A DNA stretch of 50,920 bases from Silvanigrellaceae bacterium (GCA_049423385.1 JBMSQQ010000011.1:1-50920), one strand, 5' to 3'. Positions 3,306-26,323 are shown, counted from the first letter of the stretch. A program made the numbers and translations. Notes: generated by a model not told the origin, from the sequence alone.

Positions 3306-3890
3306 TCATTCGCCTTTTTCTTGGGGAGCGGCCTCTGCGCTGATCAGGTGAAAAGGGTAATTGATCTGCAAAGTGTCTTCGGTTGTCAGAACAGGAAATC
3401 TCCAATTCTTGACCTTGTTCACAAGGCACGCACCAAGCTTCGGGTTTTTATACGTTGAGCGGCCTTCATTGTAGGTTGCGTTGGCCACTTTTCCGCCCGA
3501 TTCGATGTCGAAGGTGATGTACAGTTTTCCTTCGAGTTTTGCGTCTTTTGGCAAGAGGCTTTCAAAGCAGAGCTGGGTGTCTTCGCGATTGCTTGCGATG
3601 ACCTTTTCAATTTCTTCACGGCTCAGGGGCGTTGAGCGACGCTCACCAGGTTTCAATGGGCGCGTGCTTCCATCTGACAATTCGCATTGAAAATCTTCAT
3701 CGCGTTTGAGCTGGACGTAGTTGACGCATTCTTCCGGCGAAATTTGTGCCGGGGTCACAGCTGCTGCGCTGATGGGCTCCGGTTCGCCGTCCTTTGAACC
3801 CATGGAGACGCATGCAACGTATGGTGTCACGCCAATCATCAATACAATTTTTGAAAGAAACAGCTTGTTCAGCATGATGTCACTCGTCAT
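3306..3890 (-). CDS. AgmX/PglI C-terminal (TonB-C-like) domain exported protein
   Basis: LSREEIEKVI...TQLCFE..L...LEGKLYITFDIESGGKV...LGACLVNKVKNWRFP...INYPF pattern; hydrophobic N-terminus ending VAC; ATGA overlap with the lipase stop. Confidence 0.75.
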   Translation of the reverse strand: MTSDIMLNKLFLSKIVLMIGVTPYVACVSMGSKDGEPEPISAAAVTPAQISPEECVNYVQLKRDEDFQCELSDGSTRPLKPGERRSTPLSREEIEKVIASNREDTQLCFESLLPKDAKLEGKLYITFDIESGGKVANATYNEGRSTYKNPKLGACLVNKVKNWRFPVLTTEDTLQINYPFHLISAEAAPQEKGE

Positions 3891-5131
3891 TCGATGGAAC
3901 CGGTGGCTGGTAAAAAGTGAGGCGCAACCGGAGTCTTGAGCTGACAATGACTTGCAAAGGGGATATGGTCAAAGAGCATCCGCCAATTTGCAAACACCGC
4001 AGCGAGGATTGAGCGGCCCTGGCTTCTGCCCAGAACGGTGTTCCAGTACTCGACATCCTCATTTTCCGCATATTCGCGCGGTTCAGACAGGTTTCCGCGG
4101 GCGTCTTGCGTCAGAAGTCGGCCCACGTGTGTATAGTTGAGAATTTCAAAAACACCTTGAACGGACTCGCGCGAATCCTCGGGGAAAAGCATGCTGAAAT
4201 TATTCGCGGCAACGCGTGGTGGAGGAAGTCTTGGGACTACATCCTCATTGTTCACGAAGCGATAGATTCGTTTTGGAAAAAGCTTCGAAACGAACTTTGA
4301 ATAAACCTCGTCTCCAACCCGCGGCGACGAATAGATGTAAATCGAGTCGACAGGAAAGCCCAGTGTCGAAAGTCGAGCGGCGCTGATGACGGCCTGCGCA
4401 CCTCCCAGGCTATGTCCGGTGAGAATGATGGGAAGGTTCGAGTTTGAATGTTCGCGCACCAGCGACAAGACTTTCGCCCAACTCTTTTCAAGAACATTTA
4501 GAAAACCCGTGTGAACCCGACCCGGAATTCCCGGGAAGAATTCGGGCTTGCTGGCAAAGGTCACGTCCGTCATGTAGTCGATGAGATCAGAGGTTCCCGC
4601 AAAACTCACGATGACGTATTTGCTGTTCGACCCTACGAAAGCCTGAAAGCTCGTCGAATTTTCCTGGATGAAATCAATTTTTGTGAGTCCCATCTGACGC
4701 AGTTGATCGGTGGCTTCTATCTGGCGATAAGCCTGGATGCTGAGCCACGACAGCCAATACGCATTGCCTTGATCAAAATTGTCCAGGTCTGTTGATATTT
4801 GCAATCCGGGACCTTTGGGGTTTGTGCAACGTCCCGGGTCCCATTTCGGTCGCCAGCGGCGGGCCCGGGTGGTTTCGTCGCCAACGATGGCTTTGTTGCG
4901 CAAAGTTTCATCAAGGTAACGCATGCCCTGCGCATATTTCGAAGGACGGAGAATGTTGATTTTTGAATCGTTGTCAAATTCATCAGAGAGCTGTTGGCCA
5001 CAACTCGTCAGGCCCACGGCACATACGACCGCTGTTTTTTTGAAATGACAGGCTCGAAAAACACGCCTGACGAGAGATAGATGCAACCGAAATCCCTCCG
5101 TGGATTGTTTGCAGCACCTGTATTGTTTCAA
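3887..5131 (-). CDS. class 3 lipase (alpha/beta hydrolase), probable lipoprotein
   Basis: VSFAGT, VHTGF, LTGHSLGGA nucleophile elbow, SPRVGD, NEDVVPRLPP, YTHVG, DH; lipobox LTSC. Exact start uncertain. Confidence 0.9.
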   Translation of the reverse strand: MKQYRCCKQSTEGFRLHLSLVRRVFRACHFKKTAVVCAVGLTSCGQQLSDEFDNDSKINILRPSKYAQGMRYLDETLRNKAIVGDETTRARRWRPKWDPGRCTNPKGPGLQISTDLDNFDQGNAYWLSWLSIQAYRQIEATDQLRQMGLTKIDFIQENSTSFQAFVGSNSKYVIVSFAGTSDLIDYMTDVTFASKPEFFPGIPGRVHTGFLNVLEKSWAKVLSLVREHSNSNLPIILTGHSLGGAQAVISAARLSTLGFPVDSIYIYSSPRVGDEVYSKFVSKLFPKRIYRFVNNEDVVPRLPPPRVAANNFSMLFPEDSRESVQGVFEILNYTHVGRLLTQDARGNLSEPREYAENEDVEYWNTVLGRSQGRSILAAVFANWRMLFDHIPFASHCQLKTPVAPHFLPATGSIE

Positions 5132-5200
5132 AAAAGTAACAATTTCAATCTATCAACCCGGCCAACTGAGCGTCAACCGGGCACTGGCGAGTTTGACGAT

Positions 5201-6241
5201 TTATTTGCTGCCACTCTTTAGAGCAGTCAGTTCCTTTTCCACGCTTGCGTATTGCGAGTCGAATTCCGACAGCTTGGTCCGTGCTTCAAGAACCTCTTTC
5301 ATGATTTGCACGGTTTGGCTTTGATATTGGTTGTATTGTTCAAGCTTGATCTTTGCTGCGGGACAATCGATTTGCATGATCTGCTGTGGGGCAGCCTTTC
5401 CGAGAATTTCGTTGATAGCTCCATTCAGTGCAGTACCAACTCCTGCCATCAATCCATTGACAAGAGGCGTCACCACCACGGCACTGACGATCTTGATGAG
5501 GCCCATGATCTGCGCCTGACGTGCACGATCCGCAGCTTCCTGCTCAACACAGGCTGCGTAGGAGGTGTTCGCTTCCTCGGCAGCACGGCGCATGCTGTTG
5601 AAGTTTCCGTAAAGGCGCCCCTCAGCGGAACTGAGCCCCGAGAGCACTTCCACTTCAAAGTCGGTTCTTGTGTTTTTGTAGTCGATGACGGGTGTGATCT
5701 CGAGTGCAAAACTGCAGCCAGCTTGTTTCGTTGTCGACGACGCAGCAGAAACACACGGATTCACAATGTAGTAAAACTTTCCTTCGGTGGCCGCATAGTC
5801 TGTCACGGTCTGGGCAGTTGTCGCGCTGGCAATCGCCCTGCAGGCAGAGACTTCTCCGCGCATGCGTTTGAATGCTTCTGCCGCTGCAGCCCTGTATTCG
5901 GGCGAAGATTTTGGAAGGTCGGACAATTTTTGCAGACCATTGCCATACACCATCGAAAAACTCGCCCTGCAGCGCCAGACCTCGGCGGAGTCTGCTCCAC
6001 CGTATGAAATGCTCACCACGGGAACATCGCCCTTGAGACCATCAAATCGTTTTGTTGCAGAACTCACCGTCGCAGAGGCACCGTTCGGGTCCATCAGCGA
6101 TTGTGCCGTCAGACTGCTTCCTTTGGGCTTTGTGGTTGGATTGTCGACGCACGCAACCTGGCTTGCAAGAAGAAATGCAAACGCGAAGCCACCGAGGCAC
6201 CGGCCGTTTGCGGATTTGGTTTGTTTGGTGTTGTGACTCAT
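5201..6241 (-). CDS. putative lipoprotein, paralog C: Cys-bridged beta domain plus coiled-coil with hydrophobic hairpin
   Basis: 346 aa ORF, signal ending QVAC, ATGA overlap with upstream gene, shares motifs with the two upstream genes. Confidence 0.75.
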   Translation of the reverse strand: MSHNTKQTKSANGRCLGGFAFAFLLASQVACVDNPTTKPKGSSLTAQSLMDPNGASATVSSATKRFDGLKGDVPVVSISYGGADSAEVWRCRASFSMVYGNGLQKLSDLPKSSPEYRAAAAEAFKRMRGEVSACRAIASATTAQTVTDYAATEGKFYYIVNPCVSAASSTTKQAGCSFALEITPVIDYKNTRTDFEVEVLSGLSSAEGRLYGNFNSMRRAAEEANTSYAACVEQEAADRARQAQIMGLIKIVSAVVVTPLVNGLMAGVGTALNGAINEILGKAAPQQIMQIDCPAAKIKLEQYNQYQSQTVQIMKEVLEARTKLSEFDSQYASVEKELTALKSGSK

Positions 6242-7299
6242 GGCGCTTCTCCAAACAATTTCATGCTCTGTTGGTAGCTTTCCGATTCAAGTTCGATCTG
6301 TTGCTTGTCTATCTCAATGTCTTTGGCCAGCCGGTCTGCCGGAGGACAATAATCCGGTGGCAGGAAATCTGCCGATTGGGCCGAGAGATCCTTGAATATT
6401 CCAGCCACGTCGAGGCCGCCGATAATCGATTGTGTCGCTTTGTCTGCAATCATTTTCGACCCCAAACCAACACCAATTCCCAACAACTGTCCGATTGCAG
6501 CCCTGCGTTTTTGAGAGACCCGGTTTGCGCCGCGCTCTGCTTCGCAACGGCCGATTTCCGTATCCAGTTGTTTCGCTTTGTAGACAATGTTTCGGCCCAG
6601 GCTGTCGATCTTGTCGCGTTGGGCCAGCAGCTGTGATTTTCGTTCTGCAGAGAGGGCTTGTTCCTTGTTCACGTATCCACGCAGGTCTCCCGATTTGGAA
6701 ACTTGCCGGGAACAGGGACTGACGGTTGCGCTGGTGCTGTCGAGGGGGAGACGCGACGCCTGCACGCATGCACGACTGACGTAAATCCAGTTTCCGTCAC
6801 CGGCAAAATAGTCGACGAACTTGTCGATGGACACACTTGTTGCGATCGTGACACAGCCAAAAGTGCTGGAAATATTTTTCCAGTAGTCGGTGTCTTTGTA
6901 CTTCTGATCCGCCACCTGAGTATTGGCTGCACCAATCTCGATGGTGCCGAGGTCGCCCAGTTTCGCATCGGCCCGGCAGCGGATGATTTGCACGTAATCG
7001 GCTTTTTCCGGAAATGAAAAACTCAGAATCGGATACTTGTACCGGCTGACTTCGAAATAGGAAGCCCCGAAAAAATTCAATCGCATCGTTGCGCCATCAA
7101 GTTCTTCTGCAGAAATCCGTCCCTTCACCTGTTGGGCCAGAAGATTTGAACTTTTCTTGGCAACCGATCTCGTATCCGACGTTTTTGAATTGTTGCAGGC
7201 GCTCGCGGACACACACGCCAACAGGGTCAAAACAGCAGTGCCTATTGTTTTAAGATTCTCTTGTTTTGGTGGAGTCATGAATTGAAAAAATCCAATCAT
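6238..7299 (-). CDS. putative lipoprotein, paralog B: Cys-bridged beta domain plus coiled-coil with hydrophobic hairpin
   Basis: 353 aa ORF, signal ending ASAC, ATGA overlaps on both sides. Confidence 0.75.
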   Translation of the reverse strand: MIGFFQFMTPPKQENLKTIGTAVLTLLACVSASACNNSKTSDTRSVAKKSSNLLAQQVKGRISAEELDGATMRLNFFGASYFEVSRYKYPILSFSFPEKADYVQIIRCRADAKLGDLGTIEIGAANTQVADQKYKDTDYWKNISSTFGCVTIATSVSIDKFVDYFAGDGNWIYVSRACVQASRLPLDSTSATVSPCSRQVSKSGDLRGYVNKEQALSAERKSQLLAQRDKIDSLGRNIVYKAKQLDTEIGRCEAERGANRVSQKRRAAIGQLLGIGVGLGSKMIADKATQSIIGGLDVAGIFKDLSAQSADFLPPDYCPPADRLAKDIEIDKQQIELESESYQQSMKLFGEAP

Positions 7300-8528
7300 G
7301 GATTTGCTCCTCCCATCTTGGCCTTGAGTCTTGCTGAACGAGCCTGCAATTCCGCCGCAAGAATCTTGGCAGCAGCTGTGGATGTTTGGATCGCCGTTTC
7401 GAGCTTCTGGTTCAGCGACTCGATGCAGATTCCTTCGAGTGCCACCTCACGTTCTGCATTTGCCAGATTGAAGATCGCTCCGGCAATTTGCGGAAGCACT
7501 GCACCCACATCATTCAGTGTCAGCTTTCCCGCTTTGGTGGCCGTCTGCTGCGAGACACATTGCGCAGCGGCGCCATTGCCCTTGCTTTGCAGAGCTCCGG
7601 CGATTTTGTCGACGATGGTTGTCAGGCTTGTCGAGCTCAGTGCGCTGGGGCCAATCATTTGCGCACCGGGAGTGGCTGTGGCTGAAAGGTCCAAAAGGAG
7701 CTTGGCGGCACCTGCAGCGGGATCAGTTCCATTGTTTGCTCCTGTTGCAGGTGTTTGGCCCGACGCAGCAGGATCTGTAGGAGTCTTGCCTGCAGCCGGG
7801 TCTGTTTGGGTTTTGTCTCCAGCTGGAGCTGCTGCGTTACAACCGGGTGTTCCTTTTGCGATGGCATTACTGATGACACCCAAAGCACTCTGACCCAATT
7901 TTCCAAGTGCCTCCGCGAGGCCCTTGTCAGCTGCAAGTGCGGCTTTCTGCTGCTCGGTTGCAGGTTTGCACTTGTTGGCTCGTTCAAGTTTGTACTTCAG
8001 GATCGCTTCCAGGTGCGTCTGGAGTTCCTTGGTGGCGATCTCGATTGCTTGTTGCTCTTCCTGCAATGCGGCCTTTTCGCGATCGATCACTGCCCATTGG
8101 TTGTATGATGATTGAAACCATTCTCCACAATTCGAACTGCCTGTGGCACGGGACCTGTCAACGCATGCCCGCAACTTGACGACAACCTTGGCTCCACTTG
8201 GAGCATTTGCCAGTGTGGATTCGGTTGTGAAAATGTTTTTGGCTTCACTGCAGCTGGATTCCGATTCTACGCAGGTCGCGACTTCCACGTATTCTGCGAA
8301 TCCCGAGTAGCTGAAATTCACGAGAGGCTGAACAGCTCCCCCGAATTTCGGATTTGAGTACTGAACAACGTTGATGTCGCTGATCAGCAGTGTCTTCGCA
8401 TCGACCATCGGAAGCGATGGCACAGAATCCAGACTCAGCGTTTTGTTGATCTGGGGACCATCCGGATTGGTGCAGGAAATTGCCAGCAATGCGCAAGTCA
8501 CCAGGGAAATGCAGCCAACTGTTTTCAT
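7296..8528 (-). CDS. putative lipoprotein, paralog A: beta domain plus coiled-coil hairpin with low-complexity insertion
   Basis: Start at MKTVGCISL (ATG 8528 overlapping vWA stop, RBS GGAGG); signal ending AISC. Confidence 0.75.
   Translation of the reverse strand: MKTVGCISLVTCALLAISCTNPDGPQINKTLSLDSVPSLPMVDAKTLLISDINVVQYSNPKFGGAVQPLVNFSYSGFAEYVEVATCVESESSCSEAKNIFTTESTLANAPSGAKVVVKLRACVDRSRATGSSNCGEWFQSSYNQWAVIDREKAALQEEQQAIEIATKELQTHLEAILKYKLERANKCKPATEQQKAALAADKGLAEALGKLGQSALGVISNAIAKGTPGCNAAAPAGDKTQTDPAAGKTPTDPAASGQTPATGANNGTDPAAGAAKLLLDLSATATPGAQMIGPSALSSTSLTTIVDKIAGALQSKGNGAAAQCVSQQTATKAGKLTLNDVGAVLPQIAGAIFNLANAEREVALEGICIESLNQKLETAIQTSTAAAKILAAELQARSARLKAKMGGANP
7711..7825 (-). repeat. 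imperfect TDPAA peptide repeats (3 copies) inside paralog A
   Basis: Protein ...KTQTDPAAGKTPTDPAASGQTPATGANNGTDPAAG...; DNA copies at about 7711, 7761 and 7789. Confidence 0.7.
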
Positions 8529-9673
8529 TTTGCAACTCCTCCCTGCGCGATCGAGATGCTGACAGACTTTGATTTCGCACCCGTCTGGGAGCACTTGCGC
8601 GTTACACTGAGCTTCAATGTGCCATTGGGTACGGATGGTGGTAGAGACGCCTCAAAGACGCCGGTCGTGTCGGATGTTGAGACATCCTTTTTGAAAATCA
8701 ATTGTCCACTCTGGTCTGTCGCTTCGAATGAAGTCAAAAGACAAGATTCCGAACTGGACGCATTGACCGATGCACGGTTGCTGAGAGCAGGTATCCAACC
8801 GACCAAATCGGCCGGAACAAGAACGCGCACTGGTTTGATGCCTGCCGTCGAAGTCAAAAGGTCGAGTTGCTCGATGGCTGTCGGATCAAACTTGGACAAT
8901 CCCGTTGCAATCTGGTTGTTCGCCGCATAATTGACAATTAGTTGTCCACCGCTCGATGCCAATTTGCTGGAAAATTCCGAGACAATCTTTGCGGTTGGTC
9001 CAACGTCGATTCCTGTGCTGCCAATCCCTGTTGAGCCGCTGATCAGCATCAAAAGTTTGTTGGCATTGCTGCCTGCCTGGAGATGCTTGATGCCTTCTTC
9101 AATGCCAGGGAAAACTGCCTTTGCAGCATCATTTGTGATCCAATCGGTCGAGTTCGGATCGATGGTCTTGAGACCATTGGGTGTCCAGTCGGTGGAATCA
9201 CCGCCAATGTCCGAGATGAGCTTCGCCGTTTCTCCCTGTGCAACCGATGCAACGATTTTGTTGCGAAATGAAACAGCGGAGAGGGAGCCAATACGTCCGT
9301 CCGAGTTCAGTTTCGTCAGGACCTGAATCAGCTGTGGCTTCAATGACGAGGCCAACTTCAACATGTTTTCAGATACGTCCACCACAACCGCGACATCATA
9401 TTTGAAAGCCGATTCCGCCCCTGCACCCTGCAGGCTGTTCGGGCAGTTTATCGGAATGCCAATGGCCTGTGGCCTGTTGCCTTGGTTGAATTCGTTGCCA
9501 TCAACTTTTTCAACGATGCAGTCGAGATTGACCCGACCAGGTGTACCCAGAAAGCCCGCAGGTCTTATCTTCACATCGGCACTCACATCACGCGTCGACG
9601 TGAACTTGCTTGGTGCGCAGGCAGATGCCACGGATGCCAGAACGAGTCCAAGGTTTGTCATTTTCAAGCGCAT
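8525..9673 (-). CDS. vWA-like domain lipoprotein
   Basis: Signal ending ASAC; DVAVVVDVSENM (MIDAS-like strand), LSAVSF, KLLMLISG; RBS GGAGG. Confidence 0.7.
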   Translation of the reverse strand: MRLKMTNLGLVLASVASACAPSKFTSTRDVSADVKIRPAGFLGTPGRVNLDCIVEKVDGNEFNQGNRPQAIGIPINCPNSLQGAGAESAFKYDVAVVVDVSENMLKLASSLKPQLIQVLTKLNSDGRIGSLSAVSFRNKIVASVAQGETAKLISDIGGDSTDWTPNGLKTIDPNSTDWITNDAAKAVFPGIEEGIKHLQAGSNANKLLMLISGSTGIGSTGIDVGPTAKIVSEFSSKLASSGGQLIVNYAANNQIATGLSKFDPTAIEQLDLLTSTAGIKPVRVLVPADLVGWIPALSNRASVNASSSESCLLTSFEATDQSGQLIFKKDVSTSDTTGVFEASLPPSVPNGTLKLSVTRKCSQTGAKSKSVSISIAQGGVAK

Positions 9674-9707
9674 GAAACCTCCTCCCTCCGCAGATACCCT
9701 GCGCCCT

Positions 9708-11090
9708 TTATTCCGCAGGGCAGTCGTTGCGTGTCATCAGCTGGATGAACGCGGGATTGTTCTGAATCTGCTCGGCACCGTCGTTGGAAGGCCAAACCAG
9801 TGAGTTTGAAGCGAAGGTGAAGGAGAATCCTGCTTTCTCGTAAACAACTTGATCGTTTGCAAGGATGGTGATCTTGGAGAAGCTTCGCAGGTCGAGTTCG
9901 TAACGGTGAAAGCCCGACCACGCACCGATCCCAAAAAAGCCATCAAGGCGGAACGGGTCATTCTGATAGGCGACGCCGCCTTTCTTGATGCGCAAACCAC
10001 GCAGCTCCTGAATTTCACGATCCGAAAAGGCGTTTGTGGTGAAGCCGCCACCTGGTCTGAAGATCGCACCTTGCGACTCGTCAGGCACGGTATGGAACAT
10101 GTTTTGACCAAAAGTGAAGGTGTACTCCTTCGAATTTCCGGCGTTTTGCAATGCTGACGAAGAATCTCCACGGTTCGAATTGGCAAGTGCTGCGCCTTCA
10201 ACCTTGACCTGGAGTTTCTTGATTTTCGAATATCCCCAGCATCCCAGGTTTTCCGCGCCTGTGAGTTGCTTGATCAACTGATCGTTTCGGTTGGATTCCC
10301 GCGCGAACTGTTGCTCGAGGTCTGGCGGTTGAGGGTCACTTGAGGCAACAGGCTTTGTTGCGAGCGCGTCATCCATGAGTTTTTTCAACTCGTCGCGAGG
10401 CACGGCGCACTTTGCATCCTGCTGGAATCCAAGAATCTTGGTCAGCGCAATCTGGATTCCTCCGTTGGTGTCGCTCAAATCGTTGCGGTCAAACAAGGCT
10501 TGTCCGTTGAGGAAAAGCACAAAAGTCGAGACGTCTGATTTCTTGTAGTTGGTGCTGTTCGAACAAGAGTCGGGGACCACCTTCAGGAACATGTCGCTCA
10601 GTTCGATCACGCGTGGTGATTTGACCAACGAAGTCGATTTCGGTGGAAGAATATCGCAAGGCGATTTTGTTCGGGGACCCCATGTGAGTTTTTGCTTCGT
10701 TCCGGTGCCCACGGCTTGTGTTTGCCACATGCCGTTTTTGGTGGTCAGGATCGCCTTTGTTCCGCTCGGCACGACAATGTTCAATTCAAAATTGGATTCA
10801 ACGGTGGCGTTGGGGTCAACACCCGAAACGCACCCCAAGACTTTCTGGTCGTCGTCGGGTGTCAGGCTCGCAGTGGCAACCGGACATTCAACTCTTTGTT
10901 TTTGAACCCGCAAACACAGCGCGTCGTTTTGGGTTTTGAGTTCCATCAGTTTGGAAAATGAAGCCTTCGATTGGCTGTCGAGAGCCTGGGCACCCATCGG
11001 CATGTTCTTCAAATTTGCCGGGAGTCCTGGTGGCTCTGGCGCACAGGCACTGGCAGAAATCAACGCTGTGAAGATAAGTAACGTGCGCAT
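9708..11090 (-). CDS. lipoprotein with two tandem coiled-coil + beta-domain repeats
   Basis: 460 aa; signal MRTLLIFTALISASAC; RBS GGAG; internal duplication visible by eye. Confidence 0.75.
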   Translation of the reverse strand: MRTLLIFTALISASACAPEPPGLPANLKNMPMGAQALDSQSKASFSKLMELKTQNDALCLRVQKQRVECPVATASLTPDDDQKVLGCVSGVDPNATVESNFELNIVVPSGTKAILTTKNGMWQTQAVGTGTKQKLTWGPRTKSPCDILPPKSTSLVKSPRVIELSDMFLKVVPDSCSNSTNYKKSDVSTFVLFLNGQALFDRNDLSDTNGGIQIALTKILGFQQDAKCAVPRDELKKLMDDALATKPVASSDPQPPDLEQQFARESNRNDQLIKQLTGAENLGCWGYSKIKKLQVKVEGAALANSNRGDSSSALQNAGNSKEYTFTFGQNMFHTVPDESQGAIFRPGGGFTTNAFSDREIQELRGLRIKKGGVAYQNDPFRLDGFFGIGAWSGFHRYELDLRSFSKITILANDQVVYEKAGFSFTFASNSLVWPSNDGAEQIQNNPAFIQLMTRNDCPAE

Positions 11091-11187: not shown

Positions 11188-11318
11188 GGAAAGATGAGTT
11201 AAAATTGGATTTTCCAGTTTTTTTCCGAGATTCTTCCGTCTGAATATTGACCACCTGGCCAGTGTGTTGCATACAGAAACACAATCTGCCTTTTCAATGC
11301 TGGAACTGGGAGGAAAGA

Positions 11319-13667
11319 ATGGAGAAAATTAGAACTTTTTCGCGGGGAGCGGGACTGTCCGCTTTTGCCGTGGCGGGACTGGGGCTTTTGTTGGGACATG
11401 CCCTTGCCGATGACCGGCCTGTTCCAAGGCCCAATCCAATTCCAAATCTGCCGGCGCGTCCGCCAATTCTCATCGACCCTTCAAAACTTCCGGTCATTCG
11501 CCACTCGTACATAATCAAAACGTTGCCCATCCAGGTCATCAAGCCAATTCAAACGCGATTGCCGACCATTCCGTTGCCGCAACTTCGGCCCGAGACACAA
11601 GTCACAATCGGCCTCTACAACGGCAAGGGTGCAGTTGACGGATCTGTCAACAAATCACTGCAGCAGATTCAAAATGAAATGAACACATGGGCCAGCGACC
11701 AACGCAGCCAGTATCAAGTGTTTGCCGGTCGTTCACCGATTTTTGCAAACATGGCTCTGAAAGAGTTGACGCAGTTCAACCAAAGCAAAAATCGCAACAT
11801 GCGTGTTGGTCAAATTCCGATGAATCTTGTTCATCTGGAAGCCCTCAAGCGCCAAAGCGATGCGTTCAAGAATCCCGGACAGGTCGAAAACGAACCTGAA
11901 TTCAAGGATCGCACTGTGGCCTATTCGGGAGGCTACGCCCGCTCGCTTGGAAATGAATATTTTGGTGTCGATGCGAACGCTGGATACGGTGTGAACATCT
12001 CCAAGGATTTTCAAAAGGCCGATGCCAATGCCACGGTCAATGGAACCATCCTGCAGAGCCAGGTCAATGTGTTTGATGCGCAAGCCCACAACGAAACAGG
12101 CCAGGCCACCTACTGCTACATATCCGTATTCGGTCAAAAACTGTGGGAAATGACGAGTCCAAGTTTTGCGGATGATGTTTATTATGATCGTTCTGAAGGT
12201 GCCCGCATGAACTTCTGGCTGGGGCCTGTGCCAATGTCGGTGGGAGGTTCCGTCACTGGCCGCCTGGGAACGCAATACAATGTACAAGCACTCTATGGCG
12301 AAAAATTGCTCAATGGAACCGTGCGTCCCTATCTGGACACCTATGGAAATGTTGATGCTGCGATTGATGCTTACATCGCCTCTGCAGGAGTTTTTGGTTC
12401 GCTCAAGTTTTTGGGTTTGAGTCTGCCGACAACAGCCTATCTCAAGTACGATCTGCGCCCGGACGCTCCCTTGCTCACAGCAAATCTCGACGTGAACACC
12501 AACGTCGACGCCTTGGGTGGTCGAGTAGGGTTGTTTGCTGAAATCGATTACTGGTTCGACACGGAACGTTGGGAAAAAACGCTGTTTTCGTGGTCAGGCT
12601 TCCAGGAGAGTGCCAGCGTTTTCAAAGAGCGCGAGTCGCTTCCGCTCAAGGATTATATTGGATGGAAGTACAAGCAGCTCAATGGTGCGTCCGGATTCCT
12701 CGGTCAGCCTGTCGGTGGCGAATCACAAACCCCAAGCAAGCCTGGATTGTACCGCCATTTTCAGGGTGGCTCGATTTATTGGTCTGAAGCAACCGGGGCC
12801 CATGAAGTTCACGGACTCATTCGCAACAAGTGGGCTTCGATGGGTTGGGAAAATGGAAAGCTTGGGTTCCCAATGTCCGACGAACTCACAGCTTCCGATG
12901 GTCAAGGAAAGTACAACCACTTTCAAGGCGGAACCCTTTGGTACCATCCTGCGACAGGAAATGCGTTCCTCGTGAAAGGTGCCATCAATGAGAAATGGAA
13001 ACAGTACCGGCGTGGTTTGGGAATGCTCGGCTATCCGACCATCGACGAAACACAAACTCCCGACGGTCGTGGGTACTACAACCACTTCCAAAATGGTTCG
13101 ATCTACTGGACTCCGCAAACAGGTGCTGCAGAAGTTCATGGCCTGATCCGCCAGAAATGGGCAGACAATGCTTGGGAGCGCGGAGTGCTTGGATATCCGC
13201 TCACCGACGAGGGGCAAACTCCAGATGGAATGGGACGCTTCAACCACTTTGAGGGCGGCTCCGTTTACTATCATCCCGAGTTCGGAACAAACATTGTCCG
13301 CGGAACGATTCGTGATCGTTGGGAAGCGCTCAATTGGGAACGCGGCTGCCTCGGTTATCCAAAAGACGAACAACGCATTACCCAAACGGAAACCGTGTCT
13401 ATGGACATTCCTGTTCTGGGTCGTGTGAGTGGTCTGAGAAAAACGATCACGCAGGTGTTCGAGGGTGGTTCTGTTTCCTACAAGGAAGATTGTTTCGGAA
13501 CTCAATGCAAAATGTCATCGGGACCACTGCATCAATGCACCCTGATTCCGATCAAGGTTCCACCAATTGTCAGGATTCCGTTGCCAACACGGCCATTGCC
13601 AATGCCTTTTCCACGCCCAACGCCAGGACCAAACTCGCTGGTGGTAGATGAAGAAGTCGGGGAGTGA
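11319..13667 (+). CDS. secreted protein: Pro-rich ends, large beta-sheet domain, five LGFP repeats
   Basis: RBS GGAGG; signal peptide ending ALA; repeats LGQP/LGFP/LGYP/LGYP/LGYP with HFQGGSIYW-type segments. Confidence 0.85.
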   Translation: MEKIRTFSRGAGLSAFAVAGLGLLLGHALADDRPVPRPNPIPNLPARPPILIDPSKLPVIRHSYIIKTLPIQVIKPIQTRLPTIPLPQLRPETQVTIGLYNGKGAVDGSVNKSLQQIQNEMNTWASDQRSQYQVFAGRSPIFANMALKELTQFNQSKNRNMRVGQIPMNLVHLEALKRQSDAFKNPGQVENEPEFKDRTVAYSGGYARSLGNEYFGVDANAGYGVNISKDFQKADANATVNGTILQSQVNVFDAQAHNETGQATYCYISVFGQKLWEMTSPSFADDVYYDRSEGARMNFWLGPVPMSVGGSVTGRLGTQYNVQALYGEKLLNGTVRPYLDTYGNVDAAIDAYIASAGVFGSLKFLGLSLPTTAYLKYDLRPDAPLLTANLDVNTNVDALGGRVGLFAEIDYWFDTERWEKTLFSWSGFQESASVFKERESLPLKDYIGWKYKQLNGASGFLGQPVGGESQTPSKPGLYRHFQGGSIYWSEATGAHEVHGLIRNKWASMGWENGKLGFPMSDELTASDGQGKYNHFQGGTLWYHPATGNAFLVKGAINEKWKQYRRGLGMLGYPTIDETQTPDGRGYYNHFQNGSIYWTPQTGAAEVHGLIRQKWADNAWERGVLGYPLTDEGQTPDGMGRFNHFEGGSVYYHPEFGTNIVRGTIRDRWEALNWERGCLGYPKDEQRITQTETVSMDIPVLGRVSGLRKTITQVFEGGSVSYKEDCFGTQCKMSSGPLHQCTLIPIKVPPIVRIPLPTRPLPMPFPRPTPGPNSLVVDEEVGE
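12655..13380 (+). repeat. five tandem LGFP repeats (~54 aa each)
   Basis: I..KW...GWE.G.LGYP..DE..T.DG.G.YNHF.GG.IYW...TGA..V.G periodicity. Confidence 0.9.
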
Positions 13668-15667
13668 TGAGCAACGTGAAGCTGCGAAACGGTCGAAATA
13701 CTCTGGTTGGATTGGTGGCGGTTTTGGTGATTGGCCTGGGTGTGTACTTCACCACCCGGCAAACAACATCCGCACCCTCTCCACAGGCTGACAGCCCGGC
13801 GGGTGCTTCATCCGCAGTCGATAAAGCGACATTTGAACAGGCACTCGTCAGGTATTCACTCAATACCGATGAAGTGAGAACATTCGGGTTTTTGCAGGAT
13901 ATGTCTGTTGAGATGAATCCTGCGCAGGGGCAATCGACCGTTTCGCGCATTCACTTGCGTGGGCAATTTGATGAGCAGCTCGTTTCTGTTTCCGGAAACA
14001 GGCTGACGTATCGCTACAATTTTCATGATGTTCAATTCGAGTCCACCGATGCCGAAGGGCGAGCCGCACTTCCTCCCGACGAAGTGAACAACATTGTTCA
14101 GTCTGTGGTTGGCACCACCTTGTTGCTCAAGACGGATGTGTTGCATTCAAGCATCAGCTGGAGCGTGACTCGCCAAACGAATCTTGAAACTCTCAACCTC
14201 CTGCGCAGTGTCGTGCTTTCGGGCTCGGTGTTTTTGCCGGCCGCGAAGGACCTCAGCGAATGGACCGGCACCGAGGAAGATTCAACCGGCATTTTCACGC
14301 TGAATCACAAATTGATTTCGCTGGGGAATGGCAAAGCCCAAATTGAAAAGGAACCACGCATGGTGAGGGTTCCAGAGGATTTCGGCCTGGCCGGTCATTC
14401 CACGCAGCAGTCGGTGGTTGTTTTACCGTCCTCTTCCACTAAAATTGAATTCGACGCAACGGCGGGGCATCTGCTCAAGGCTGATCAACGCTGGAGCATG
14501 CGGGCGCAGGCCGCCGGATTGTTGGCAACCACCAATCTGCGCACTCAAGTCGATTTTCAGTCAAAACGCAAAGCGACAGATGAAGACCGTAAATTCCTGC
14601 AGTCCGATATCGCATCGACAGATTCGGGCAATGGATTCATCAGCGAGTTCGAGCTTCAGGCAGCCCATTCCACTTCGATAAAGCGCAAAGTGGCAGCGCA
14701 AAAACTTGCTGGCGAAAATTGGGCGAGCCTTAGAAGCCTTTTGATGTCGCCGGATTTTCACAAGGACGGCGCCGCTCGGGCAAAGTTTTTCGAACAACTT
14801 TCGGCACTGTTGTATTTGCAGCCTGAACTTTGCACCACAGTTGCGGATGAAATCGCCAGGCTCGACAGGCAGGACCCCGATTACAAGAGCAAATTGTCTC
14901 TCTTGGCGGGGGTTTTTTCGAGTCAGGAAACACCCGAAGCAGAGGCCGCCATGGTGGCGTTGGCAGAGCGGATGAAGGAAGATTCGTCGGCATTGATGCA
15001 AGTCATTCCTGCAATGGCAGCGCATCGGAATCCATCCGAACGCACGCGCGATGCCCTCATGCAGAGCTATACCCAGGCGGTGGATGAAGGAGTCAAATCA
15101 ACTGCAACCTTGGCATTGGGAACATTTGCCTCGCGTGCCCGGAACTCAAGGCCCGATCTGACACGTGAAACCGTGGAGCGGTTGAAACAGGATTTCGACA
15201 GTTCGTCTGCAATCAACAAGAAGGTCACACTTTCGGGTGCATTGGGAAATGTCGGTGCCAATGAAGCCCTTGAAAGCGTGAAATCGCTGTTCGCTGCGAG
15301 TCAGGATGCGTCCTTGAAGCGTTCGGCAATCTACGACCTGCGCTTTGTGAACGACCCTCAGGTCGATGTGTTTTTGCAGCAGGTCGTGACCGACTCTGCA
15401 ACCGATCCGGAACTTGTCGTTCAGGGGGTGAGGGTTATGAGAATGCGTCCGCCGCTCAAGATGCATTTGCAGACCATGACCACACTGTTTCGCACCAAAG
15501 GCGTCCGCGCGACGCTTCGGAGCGAAGCGCTTTACACGATTTCATATTTGTCGCCGGTGTCTCCGGAAGAAGTGCAAAAACTTTTGGAAGAAGCTGCCAA
15601 GGACGCCAATCCGCAGATTGCAAAACAGGCGGAACAGCTGTTGGCGCGTCAAACCCAGCCGTTGTAA
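13664..15667 (+). CDS. membrane-anchored beta-barrel + HEAT-repeat protein, vitellogenin/MTP N-terminal (LPD_N)-like architecture
   Basis: Single N-terminal TM; ~250 aa beta-strand-rich region, then helical repeats with ATLALGTFA, LSGALGNVG, LKRSAIYDLR, LRSEALY; start overlaps the upstream stop. Confidence 0.7.
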   Translation: MMSNVKLRNGRNTLVGLVAVLVIGLGVYFTTRQTTSAPSPQADSPAGASSAVDKATFEQALVRYSLNTDEVRTFGFLQDMSVEMNPAQGQSTVSRIHLRGQFDEQLVSVSGNRLTYRYNFHDVQFESTDAEGRAALPPDEVNNIVQSVVGTTLLLKTDVLHSSISWSVTRQTNLETLNLLRSVVLSGSVFLPAAKDLSEWTGTEEDSTGIFTLNHKLISLGNGKAQIEKEPRMVRVPEDFGLAGHSTQQSVVVLPSSSTKIEFDATAGHLLKADQRWSMRAQAAGLLATTNLRTQVDFQSKRKATDEDRKFLQSDIASTDSGNGFISEFELQAAHSTSIKRKVAAQKLAGENWASLRSLLMSPDFHKDGAARAKFFEQLSALLYLQPELCTTVADEIARLDRQDPDYKSKLSLLAGVFSSQETPEAEAAMVALAERMKEDSSALMQVIPAMAAHRNPSERTRDALMQSYTQAVDEGVKSTATLALGTFASRARNSRPDLTRETVERLKQDFDSSSAINKKVTLSGALGNVGANEALESVKSLFAASQDASLKRSAIYDLRFVNDPQVDVFLQQVVTDSATDPELVVQGVRVMRMRPPLKMHLQTMTTLFRTKGVRATLRSEALYTISYLSPVSPEEVQKLLEEAAKDANPQIAKQAEQLLARQTQPL

Positions 15668-24636: not shown

Positions 24637-24745
24637 TGCAACGACATCGGCATGAACTTTGCTCTCTCGTCAATCAGGAGAGGGAGGACGCCGCATGGTC
24701 CGCATCAACTTGAAAACCAAACGTTCACGTCAAGCCGTCAGAAAC

Positions 24746-25471
24746 ATGAAGGTTTCCCTTCAACGGGCTGTCCTTGCGGTTCTGGCCACGCTGGCGGTCG
24801 CAGGCCTTTGGGCCTGTTCCGGTTCAGCCTTCGACACGACTCCACCTGGGCCTGCAGTCAATCCATCAGGCAAAAAAAATGAACCCCAGCCCCTGAATCC
24901 CGACGAGGGAGGAGGCGGAAATCCAAGGGAAAGTGAGCCTCAGGATCCGAAAAGAGTGTTGTCGCTGCAAATCACGGGAGTGCAACCGGAAGCCTGGTGG
25001 AACAACTGTTTAAAGATTGAGCTGGGTGAAAAAAACTTCGACATTGGCTGCACCAAAGACAAGAATGTGACCTCGAACATCGTTAGAATTCCAATTCCGG
25101 ACGGTGTTGAATGTCCTGTGATTGATCTGAAGATCGAAACCTTTCGGAACACAGGAAACACCTGCCGCGAACGCGCCGCCGAGGGACTTTCATGCGAAGG
25201 ACCTTTTGAATCTGCGCCATTTGCAACCAGACGTTTTTCCTCTCCGGAAGGACGAGTGCATTTTGTGCTGAGTGATGGTCCCGCGGGTACTGCAGGAAAA
25301 ATGGTACGGGCGTTCTATGAAGATCAGGATGAACAGAGCATTCGTCAGGCCAAAGAGGAATCTGCCCGTGCGGAAGAGTTGGGCATCGATTTCAATGATG
25401 CTATCTTCGATATCAAGACAAGTGGACTCCCCTTTGAAATTCTGGGAGCACCGGGTACAAAATGTCCTTAG
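24746..25471 (+). CDS. hypothetical lipoprotein with C-terminal ED...DFND motif
   Basis: Lipobox LWAC, Pro/Gly-rich linker, paired Cys, FYED...GIDFNDAIFDI. Confidence 0.7.
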   Translation: MKVSLQRAVLAVLATLAVAGLWACSGSAFDTTPPGPAVNPSGKKNEPQPLNPDEGGGGNPRESEPQDPKRVLSLQITGVQPEAWWNNCLKIELGEKNFDIGCTKDKNVTSNIVRIPIPDGVECPVIDLKIETFRNTGNTCRERAAEGLSCEGPFESAPFATRRFSSPEGRVHFVLSDGPAGTAGKMVRAFYEDQDEQSIRQAKEESARAEELGIDFNDAIFDIKTSGLPFEILGAPGTKCP

Positions 25472-25489
25472 TCCATTGAGGAGAATCCT

Positions 25490-26323
25490 ATGCACTTCGA
25501 CACCACTGCGCGGGCAAAGCCCGTTTTGAAGTGGGCCGGAGGCAAGAGTGGACTCCTGGAACAGCTGGTTCCTCATTTTCCGACACGTTTTGATCGTTAC
25601 CTCGAGCCATTTCTTGGCGGAGCTGCTGTTTTTTTGTCGCTCAAACCTTTTGTTCCAGCGCTGCTCAATGAATTGAACGAAGAGATTTTCAATCTGTACT
25701 CCGTGATTCGTACCCGGCCTGCCGAACTCGTTGCGCGGCTTGAAGAATTTCGCAGCCGCTACAGCAGGGACTTTTATTACGAGTTGCGCTCGGTGCAGCC
25801 AGAGTGCCGCGTGACAAGAGCCGCACGGACTGTTTTTTTGAACAAAACAGGTTTCAATGGTCTTTATCGACAAAACAAAAAAGGCGAATTCAACGTCCCT
25901 TTTGGACACTACAAAAGTTGTCCATCGGTATTTTCATCGGAAAACATAATGCTCGTCAGCCAACGTCTTGCAAACGCCACCCTGATGAATGCCGACTTTT
26001 CCGTTCTGCTGTCGCAAGCAGGAAAGGGCGATTTCGTGTATTGCGATCCCCCCTATGAACCGCTCACACCGACTTCGAGTTTCAATTCCTATACCGGTGC
26101 TGGTTTCACAAGGGCTGATCAGGTGAGGCTTAAAAACGAATGTTCGGCAGCAGTGGAAAGGGGAGCAGTGGTTGCCGTTTCCAATTCGTCTGCAGCATTC
26201 ATCCGTGAACTTTACAGTTCCTCTGCTCTTCAATCCATTCGCGCACGCCGAGCGATCAATTCGAATCCTGCGAGGCGTGGTGCGATTGAAGAACTGCTCA
26301 TTCTCATCCAACGTGAATCCTGA
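25490..26323 (+). CDS. dam: Dam-family (D12 class) DNA adenine methyltransferase
   Basis: KWAGGK, EPFLGG, GFNGLYRQNKKGEFNVPFG, VYCDPPY. Confidence 0.9.
   Translation: MHFDTTARAKPVLKWAGGKSGLLEQLVPHFPTRFDRYLEPFLGGAAVFLSLKPFVPALLNELNEEIFNLYSVIRTRPAELVARLEEFRSRYSRDFYYELRSVQPECRVTRAARTVFLNKTGFNGLYRQNKKGEFNVPFGHYKSCPSVFSSENIMLVSQRLANATLMNADFSVLLSQAGKGDFVYCDPPYEPLTPTSSFNSYTGAGFTRADQVRLKNECSAAVERGAVVAVSNSSAAFIRELYSSSALQSIRARRAINSNPARRGAIEELLILIQRES

Follow-up and report, generated by a model that had tools for sequence, protein, structure and literature searches.

The gene cluster

A stretch of 50,920 nucleotides from a Silvanigrellaceae bacterium (GCA_049423385.1 JBMSQQ010000011.1:1-50920; the window in what follows, with positions counted from its first nucleotide) contains a cluster of seven genes on one strand (Table 1). 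Three adjacent genes of this cluster, P0003, P0002 and P0001, encode members of an undescribed family of envelope lipoproteins, found so far in a single phylum, in which known folds are combined in an unusual way. The combination predicted for these proteins, which we did not find described, is a lipobox, a fibronectin type III (FN3)-like β-sandwich and a four-helix bundle with glycine-zipper-like, apolar, disulfide-bracketed inner helices. In order of transcription, the cluster consists of g460, g382, P0003, P0002, P0001, a gene for a class-3 lipase and a gene for a protein with an AgmX/PglI domain. Start and stop codons overlap as ATGA at the g382/P0003, P0003/P0002 and P0002/P0001 junctions and a GGAG-type Shine-Dalgarno sequence lies upstream of all three paralog starts (GGAGGAG for P0003, GGGAGGAG for P0002 and GGAGAAG for P0001); thus, the three paralogs are translationally coupled. 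A signal peptide ending in a lipobox cysteine is apparent by eye in all seven cluster products. Metatranscriptome contigs from two aquatic runs match parts of P0001, P0002, P0003, g382 and the AgmX-domain gene with 99-100% identity; the metatranscriptome shares are small (0.16 and 0.06), DNA carry-over is possible and the uncovered parts are uninformative, and the matches are at most a weak hint of transcription.

Paralogy and extent of the family

The three proteins were compared using family alignments of P0001, P0002 and P0003 (A1, A2 and A3, respectively), a wider alignment of 149 sequences (A5) and an alignment of 64 members (A6). Each protein has 13-15 close metagenome homologs, which sit on the same contigs. 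BLASTP gives an alignment of P0001 with P0002 that covers 272 residues with 20% identity (E 7e-7), while none of the pairs involving P0003 is significant. Comparison of the alignments using hhalign relates A1 to A2 over 236 columns (probability 96.7%, E 4.4e-10) and A2 to A3 in the N-domain only (probability 90%, E 1.6e-6). The match between A5 and A3 is stronger (probability 97.8%, E 6.7e-13, 212 columns) and extends from the N-domain through the first long helix and past the first of two conserved `pin' cysteines to the start of a Gly-rich segment. A1 and A3 on their own give a weak match (probability 21.5%, E 1e-3) and homology is not established by that pair. Taken together, the A1-A2, A2-A3 and A5-A3 matches identify P0001, P0002 and P0003, at the level of their sequences, as true and deeply diverged paralogs, as the initial annotation of this region had proposed.

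A profile search with the A2-centred alignment against 1.84 billion representative sequences returned 259 proteins at E <= 1e-3, 148 at E <= 1e-10 and 90 at E <= 1e-30. When 191 proteins were assigned to the best-scoring model, 147 fell to A2, 30 to A1 and 14 to A3, most of them scoring with both A1 and A2. Neither Pfam nor NCBIfam contains a model of the family, and sequence searches of the PDB chains with A5, A7, A8, g382 and g460 gave nothing significant, the best match being CIP4 on the C-terminal helix (E 0.0018). A literature search, the coverage of which did not extend to subscription journals, found no publication describing the family. It merits a name and a domain-database model whichever of the readings discussed below holds.

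Lipobox and N-terminal domain

All three paralogs have an N-terminal lipobox, called by eye and by regular expression, which in P0003 reads ..LAISC19 (see Table 1 for the others) and is followed by a flexible linker. The lipobox cysteine is at least 90% conserved in A1, A2, A3, A5 and A6. P0001, P0002 and P0003 thus have the lipobox that marks bacterial lipoproteins processed by signal peptidase II, and the lipid anchoring that had been suspected at first inspection is predicted for each of them.

The N-domain that follows carries the motifs by which the three proteins were initially grouped, PVVSISY..ADSAEVWRC in P0001 (residues 74-91), PILSFSF..ADYVQIIRC in P0002 (residues 90-108) and PLVNFSY..AEYVEVATC in P0003 (residues 68-86), together with NPCV..CS, RACV..CS and RACV..CG, respectively. 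In A5 (P0002 numbering), R107, C108, C149, D163, C178 and C196 are invariant, and conservation reaches at least 90% for the lipobox residue C35 and for D101, Y173, S197, C252 and C318. In the AlphaFold2 (AF2) models the domain is a β-sandwich. Superposition of the P0002 N-domain with VIA-align matches many FN3 chains with Z scores of 8.2-9.0 over 87-99 residues [root-mean-square deviation (r.m.s.d.) 2.2-3.4], among them lambda gpJ (8iyk_J; Z 9.0, 94 residues, r.m.s.d. 2.5), IL-10R1 (Z 8.8) and titin (Z 8.8). Foldseek searches of the PDB with the P0001 and P0002 models gave FN3-type rows only and no row at E <= 1e-3; those for P0002 have E values of 2e-3 to 4e-2 with probabilities of 0.9-1.00. 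Against BFVD, Foldseek returned phage FN3-type tail proteins only, all with E > 1e-3. The Pfam fn3 model does not match any of the family proteins scanned. The models and superpositions therefore support an FN3-like β-sandwich with conserved cysteines, as first suggested from the motifs, at the level of the fold only. The fold is shared with the FN3/Ig-like domains of lambda gpJ (8iyk), titin and cytokine receptors. Specific to the family, in contrast, are R107 and D163, both invariant, and two conserved pairs of cysteines that could form disulfides. A helical insert (residues 117-144 of P0002) is present in the A1 and A2 types and is missing from the N-domain of P0003.

Helical domain and its cysteine-bracketed insert

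C-terminal to the sandwich, the order heptad helix, cysteine, Gly-rich apolar region, cysteine and heptad helix that had been noticed in the three proteins is found family-wide, and both pin cysteines (C252 and C318 in P0002) are present in 146 of the 149 aligned members. In P0003 the equivalent C187 and C368 are invariant, unlike C230 and C324. When hydrophobicity is averaged over the family (P0002 numbering), apolar columns recur at 224/231/238/245/252 and 321/328/335/342/349, which are heptads with C252 at a core position, and the columns at 268-281 and 292-307 are uncharged. With their conserved cysteines, the paralogs are predicted to be disulfide-containing, hence extracytoplasmic, proteins; in P0002 numbering, the predicted pairs are C108-C149, C178-C196 and C252-C318.

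Between the pins, a net-basic charged stretch (+1.46) is followed by a first apolar segment, a variable charged loop, a second apolar segment and a D..P-R..C motif. The median length of the first apolar segment is 14 residues and that of the second is 19 (149 members), while the loop between them has a median length of 26 residues (range 2-145) and the whole insert one of 83 (range 54-225). In the window, the apolar segments lie at ~5435-5509 in P0001 (residues 245-269), at 6394-6498 in P0002 (residues 268-302) and at 7872-7922 and 7470-7508 in P0003, close to where they had first been placed. GxxxG occurs at 2.38 per 100 residues in the inserts, compared with 1.16 in composition-shuffled inserts (an approximately twofold enrichment over composition) and 0.30 in the rest of the protein; at least one copy is present in the insert of 126 of the 149 members, with three in P0002 and one each in P0001 and P0003.

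The hydrophobicity of the inserts is graded P0001 > P0002 > P0003, with KD19 values of 1.93, 1.38 and 1.18, compared with 1.67, 1.57 and 1.82 for the signal peptides of the same proteins. On the Eisenberg scale, the segments of P0001 and P0002 resemble their own signal peptides (<H> 0.44-0.58, with 0.58 and 0.47 for P0001) and have low hydrophobic moments (0.12-0.31), and therefore lack a polar face. Among the 191 proteins, the highest KD19 after residue 150 has a median of 1.43, reaching at least 1.6 in 68 and at least 1.2 in 136, and A1-type members from other lineages contain 35-49 uncharged residues. By these values, apolar character, rather than sequence, is kept throughout the family.

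One explanation for such stretches is that the paralogs are integral inner-membrane proteins, in which the apolar stretch would act as a stop-transfer hairpin during Sec export. The periplasm would then contain the FN3-like domain and both long helices, and a disulfide would staple the hairpin at its periplasmic ends. Some members do contain two apolar stretches of ~20 residues around a Pro/Gly turn, as in P0031 (KD19 1.83 and 1.75), P0189 and P0178, in which 40-49 residues are uncharged, and P0001 itself exceeds the classical KD19 threshold of 1.6. Most segments, however, are too short to cross a bilayer, and P0002 and P0003 fall well under transmembrane-like hydrophobicity. Furthermore, the charge pattern is opposite to that expected from the positive-inside rule: it is the basic flank that would have to remain in the periplasm, and a long loop of mixed charge would be exposed to the cytoplasm. 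Owing to this contradiction, we consider an inner-membrane topology to be very improbable.

Table 1
Features of the gene cluster (window coordinates; w/o stop, extent without the stop codon)
Feature	Position	Strand	Evidence or remark
Seven-gene cluster	3306-11090	-	All genes on the same strand
P0001 gene, A1-type paralog, 346 aa	5201..6241 (w/o stop 5204-6241)	-	13 homologs besides itself
P0002 gene, A2-type paralog, 353 aa	6238..7299 (w/o stop 6241-7299)	-	15 homologs besides itself
P0003 gene, A3-type paralog, 410 aa from ATG at 8528	7296..8528 (w/o stop 7299-8528)	-	13 homologs besides itself; profile match to A5
g382, 382-aa lipoprotein, upstream, same operon	8525..9673	-	DVS/DTSEN motif, faint VWA hints
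g460, 460-aa lipoprotein, upstream	9708..11090	-	Frequent companion of the pair in other lineages
Class-3 lipase, downstream	3887..5131	-	GHSLGG; lipobox ..GLTSC; Pfam PF01764, E 3.3e-25
Small lipoprotein, AgmX/PglI (TonB-C-like) C-terminal domain, last in cluster	3306..3947	-	NCBIfam NF033768, E 1.8e-21, above cutoff
P0001 signal peptide and lipobox ..ASQVAC, Cys31	6149..6241	-	Cys31 at least 90% conserved in A1 and A6
P0002 signal peptide and lipobox ..SASAC, Cys35	7195..7299	-	Cys35 at least 90% conserved in A5
P0001 FN3-like β-sandwich, ~residues 50-190; C91, C134, C163, C176	5672..6094	-	AF2 pLDDT 80-91; Foldseek best rows FN3-type, all E > 1e-3; invariant Cys columns
P0002 FN3-like sandwich, 64-212, helical insert 117-144	6664..7110	-	AF2 pLDDT mostly >90; Foldseek and VIA FN3 matches; invariant columns
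P0003 N-domain, ~33-145; C86, C93, C122, C134	8094..8432	-	Assigned by alignment (hhalign to the FN3-like domain); invariant columns
P0002 helical domain	6250..6648	-	Heptad helix 218-256, pin Cys252, short Gly-rich helices, pin Cys318, heptad helix 319-350
P0001 Cys231-to-Cys293 insert	5363..5551	-	Charged helical stretch, then apolar Gly-containing stretch; 251-277 without D/E/K/R
P0001 C-terminal heptad helix, 294-342	5216..5362	-	AF2 helix
P0003 Cys187-to-Cys368 insert	7425..7970	-	Amphipathic Gly-rich 202-225, low-complexity Pro/Thr/Ala linker, apolar 337-357; putative helices, by alignment only

Structure models and fold comparisons

The AF2 model of P0002, calculated with A5, has a pLDDT of 85.7 and a pTM of 0.78. 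It contains strands across residues 75-209, two long helices (218-256 and 319-350) and, between them, short helices at 260-275, 279-283, 287-293 and 298-305. The model of P0001, obtained from a shallow alignment, has a pLDDT of 65.5, with a confident β-sandwich and a low-confidence apolar region. Prediction of a complex of P0002 (residues 60-353) and P0001 (residues 45-346) using A5 and A6 gave ipSAE values of 0.00 and 0.00, which is evidence neither way.

Residues 226-345 of P0002 superpose on four-helix bundles with VIA-align Z scores of 8.3-10.6, which are below the helical noise level of the tool (~13). These matches include a plant pectin methylesterase inhibitor (PMEI; 1x8z_A, Z 10.6, r.m.s.d. 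3.1, 111 residues), single-chain ROP (1yo7_B, Z 9.4), LemA (2etd_A, Z 9.1) and Csp1 (Z 8.3). The plant pectin methylesterase/invertase inhibitors (1x8z, 1xg2 and 1rj1) give the best C-terminal superpositions overall (Z 9.7-10.6 over 111-120 residues); with an identity of 8% and scores under the noise, the resemblance is one of topology and no functional inference is drawn from it. A kinship with ESCRT-III/PspA, translocators or colicins was considered and rejected: VIA-wide with the shallow P0001 model returned generic hairpins below the helical noise (Snf7, Z 11.2; IpaB, 10.5; colicin Ia, 9.7; PspA, 9.3), and the gp41 hairpin (3k9a, Z 9.6) stands among them, likewise below that level. Look-alikes of P0002 and g460 in the ESM Atlas gave no usable match; the Atlas model of g460 has a pLDDT of 0.40 and all TM scores were <0.3.

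Conservation of the gene pair

The genome survey covered the phylum of the window. The A4 profile matched 43 of 131 genomes and A5 matched 45 of 130, so that about a third of the sampled phylum genomes carry the family; many of them have at least two copies, and the paralogs always occur as an ordered pair. Within the genus of the window, each of the 12 other genomes has a match, compared with none of 13 in the sister genus, the assemblies of which mostly consist of few contigs; among other families, one is matched in all 16 genomes and two are matched in none of 22 each. The metagenome-assembled genomes (MAGs) that carry the family are labelled Silvanigrellaceae, Silvanigrella, Oligoflexia or Oligoflexales, with a few bearing broader or probably loose labels. 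Three single-contig, apparently complete genomes of 2.2-3.1 Mb (G177, G178 and G179) contain an adjacent family pair. Several same-genus A2-type matches (e.g. G236, G238, G239 and G240) contain one or two in-frame TGA codons, which most likely reflect the N-terminus of the profile running upstream across the ATGA junction.

At all 24 distinct diverse loci, the next open reading frame (ORF) after an A2-type ORF is of the A1 type and lies on the same strand, and the same order is found in the window and at all ten close-relative loci that reach far enough. A third family member lies upstream at 11 of the 24 distinct loci and a g460-like gene is present at nine. The conserved unit is thus an A2-type gene directly followed by an A1-type gene, often joined by a third paralog and the 460-residue lipoprotein. 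Close relatives keep the full order g460, g382, A3, A2, A1, lipase and AgmX-domain gene, and the last two genes accompany the paralogs in close relatives only; many pairs stand alone between unrelated genes. The genome of the window itself has a second, more diverged cluster on another contig (C77; L018, 4269-7910, plus strand) with g460-like (509 residues), A2-like (384 residues) and A1-like (328 residues) proteins, flanked by ORFs that look like housekeeping genes as judged by their N-terminal sequences, and two separate pairs occur in each of three other genomes.

In one Oligoflexales lineage the two modules are fused into a single protein of 772 residues (P0057; A2 followed by A1), in which the second module lacks its own signal peptide. 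A protein from an NCBI MAG (P0193) is 100% identical to residues 250-772 of the fusion, the junction included; as the two assemblies may come from the same sample, they are counted as one observation.

The apolar helices: membrane element, interface or bundle core

Because the P0001 and P0002 helices are apolar all round, they would be expected either to be buried between subunits or to insert shallowly into a membrane. We therefore tentatively favour the reading, at somewhat less than even confidence, that the apolar helices are a latent or shallow membrane-inserting element, or a subunit-interface zipper, of a hetero-complex of the paralogs. The signal-peptide-like hydrophobicity of these helices and the enrichment of GxxxG in the inserts speak for it as well. 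Assembly as a hetero-oligomer is suggested by the gene order, the coupling and the one natural fusion. According to this scheme, the paralogs would assemble at the membrane surface, where their lipid anchors would retain them. In the resting state the apolar helices would lie against the long helices in a four-helix bundle, with the pin disulfide as a staple. They would either be buried between partner subunits or be released, shallowly, into one leaflet, whether of the membrane of the cell itself or of an apposed membrane, and the inserted helices might serve as a second anchor or as an oligomerization zipper. The N-flank, which is basic, would be suited to contact with anionic head groups on the entry side. 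Candidate roles in the cell are envelope stabilization, adhesion and attack together with the co-encoded lipase.

Several results weigh against this reading. With short apolar segments and a long, variable, charged loop separating them, most members are unlikely to form a hairpin that spans the bilayer. In P0003 the segments have weak hydrophobicity (<H> 0.24 and 0.41) and are amphipathic (moment 0.39-0.40). In the AF2 model of P0002, the apolar helices (pLDDT ~80-90) are packed onto the long helices as a bundle and are not exposed, and the two segments are split by the charged loop, so that the exposed hairpin tip envisaged in the initial annotation is not what is predicted. The fold searches did not produce any standout membrane protein, toxin or viral fusogen. 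Finally, the Pfam glycine-zipper and toxin families gave no match at E <= 1 in 7 + 9 + 64 proteins, the sole related match being C19orf12-like in two of the 64 members (best E 1.8e-4, below its cutoff).

The main competing explanation, which we consider less likely than the membrane-element or interface scheme but which is the most serious of its rivals, is a soluble structural or adhesive complex, in which the Gly-rich helices form the core of a disulfide-stabilized bundle or the A1/A2 interface and never enter a membrane. The proteins would then be periplasmic or surface lipoproteins with FN3-like domains that bind a ligand or partner, for example in an adhesion or gliding-type apparatus. 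The modelled helices at residues 260-305 and the superpositions of residues 226-345 on four-helix bundles are in line with this, as are the short apolar segments, the charged and variable loop and two neighbouring products, the AgmX/PglI C-terminal-domain protein and a faintly VWA-like lipoprotein. In soluble proteins, too, small-xxx-small spacing favours tight contacts between helices. On the other hand, the bundle matches are below the helical noise, the segments of P0001 and P0002 are as hydrophobic as signal peptides and lack a polar face, and A1-type members from other lineages contain 35-49 uncharged residues. In a monomer, moreover, two long helices would be too few to shield two all-apolar helices and would cover them only by half.

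Burial of the segments in a soluble core, which the initial annotation had set against its own proposal of a membrane-inserting tip, is therefore seen in part, in the AF2 model; it is not decisive because soluble α-helical pore-forming toxins (α-PFTs) also hide their hydrophobic heads (PMC6602965, excerpt). On the whole, the features that had been picked out at this locus are confirmed, and their interpretation is partly supported.

Comparison with pore-forming toxins

ClyA-family α-PFTs (AhlABC, SmhABC, YaxAB/XaxAB, Nhe and Hbl) resemble the present family in several respects: as far as the excerpted account goes (PMC6602965), they are encoded in operons of two or three diverged helical paralogs and carry, between two long helices, a hydrophobic head that is graded in length and hidden when the protein is soluble. 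The head of AhlC, for instance, comprises 15 residues and is hidden by oligomerization (PMC6602965, excerpt), and membrane-damaging glycine-zipper toxins also exist (PMC12955049, excerpt). The paralogs might accordingly be imagined as a multi-component membrane-damaging weapon, a lipid-anchored functional analogue of the bipartite and tripartite α-PFTs with heads graded P0001 > P0002 > P0003, displayed on the cell surface or on vesicles and acting with the class-3 lipase on the membranes of prey or host. Three paralogs of graded hydrophobicity in one coupled operon would fit this picture, as would the lipase, which lies directly downstream in the window and at all seven related loci that extend past A1 (L003, L004 and L007-L011). 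However, the lipase was found at none of 20 more distant loci and is therefore outside the conserved core; most genomes have the A2-A1 pair only, with housekeeping genes flanking it, and the lipoboxes argue for retention on the producer cell.

Chains of ClyA, Hbl, Nhe, Xax, Yax or Ahl are missing from the matches listed by Foldseek and VIA for both models, although absence from such a listing is no proof against kinship. Apart from the gp41 hairpin below the helical noise level, the fold searches did not return a viral fusogen either, which leaves the originally suggested analogy to α-PFT or fusogen architecture unsupported. HlyE-, HBL- and Xax-type models of Pfam and NCBIfam do not match at E <= 1 (three proteins, nine relatives and 64 members), no other toxin family of Pfam does so, and the family profile has no sequence match to these toxins in the PDB. 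The two long helices of P0002 (39 and 32 residues) are far shorter than the 140 Å helices reported for AhlB (PMC6602965, excerpt). In place of a tail of four or five helices made up of N-terminal and C-terminal helices, the present family has an FN3-like domain and a single four-helix unit, and its N-terminal lipid anchor, FN3-like domain and disulfide pin are without counterpart in the toxins. It thus seems that the ClyA-family toxins share design principles only, and a weapon of this kind is improbable. If it were true, the family would be a lipid-anchored relative, by analogy, of the multi-component α-helical pore formers.

An equally improbable, bolder extension of the favoured scheme would make the family a new class of lipid-anchored, multi-component, α-helical membrane-inserting machines. 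Here, a redox or partner switch would release the disulfide-bracketed glycine-zipper helices out of the four-helix bundle and into an apposed membrane, which would be permeabilized, tethered or fused, in the genus of the window together with the lipase. Such machines would be unrelated by descent to ClyA toxins, SlyB zippers and viral fusogens.

Comparison with glycine-zipper lipoproteins

The closest functional analogues are probably the two-transmembrane (2TM) glycine-zipper outer-membrane lipoproteins SlyB, YfgH, OsmB and YiaD, which likewise combine a lipobox with an apolar helical region containing GxxxG repeats (bioRxiv 10.64898/2025.12.22.696046, excerpt). In SlyB and YfgH, according to the same excerpt, this region is in the membrane and mediates oligomerization (bioRxiv 10.64898/2025.12.22.696046). 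The present proteins are far larger, since they also contain an FN3-like domain and a pair of long heptad helices, and they differ in having apolar helices that are disulfide-bracketed and split by a variable charged loop; their genes occur as obligate paralog pairs. With regard to two membrane-spanning helices, the apolar segments here have median lengths of 14 and 19 residues and are predicted by AF2 to form part of a bundle, with 2 × ~20 apolar residues in some members. No glycine-zipper or Rick_17kDa_Anti model of Pfam matches any of 80 proteins at E <= 1. If the apolar helices do enter membranes, the family would bring a heteromeric type to the few glycine-zipper envelope lipoproteins that are being tied to outer-membrane organization; if they stay out of membranes, it would be a lineage-specific structural lipoprotein pair.

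Neighbouring genes

The product of g382 contains a conserved D-[VT]-S-E-N motif after a β-strand-like VAVV(L/V), which recalls a degenerate metal-ion-dependent adhesion site (MIDAS) motif of VWA domains. Among ten relatives of g382, one matches TssR_VWA (E 0.0016) and one matches VWA (E 0.13). Divergent from the cluster, the region at 11247-15667 on the plus strand encodes an 806-residue protein that contains four LGFP repeats (PF08310, E 4.9e-83) and, after it, a 667-residue protein with a sub-threshold HEAT_2 match. Further along the same strand, at 24659-26323, a D12-class N6-adenine DNA methyltransferase (PF02086, E 4.7e-56) is preceded by an ORF of 270 residues without any Pfam match, with which it may form a restriction-modification pair.

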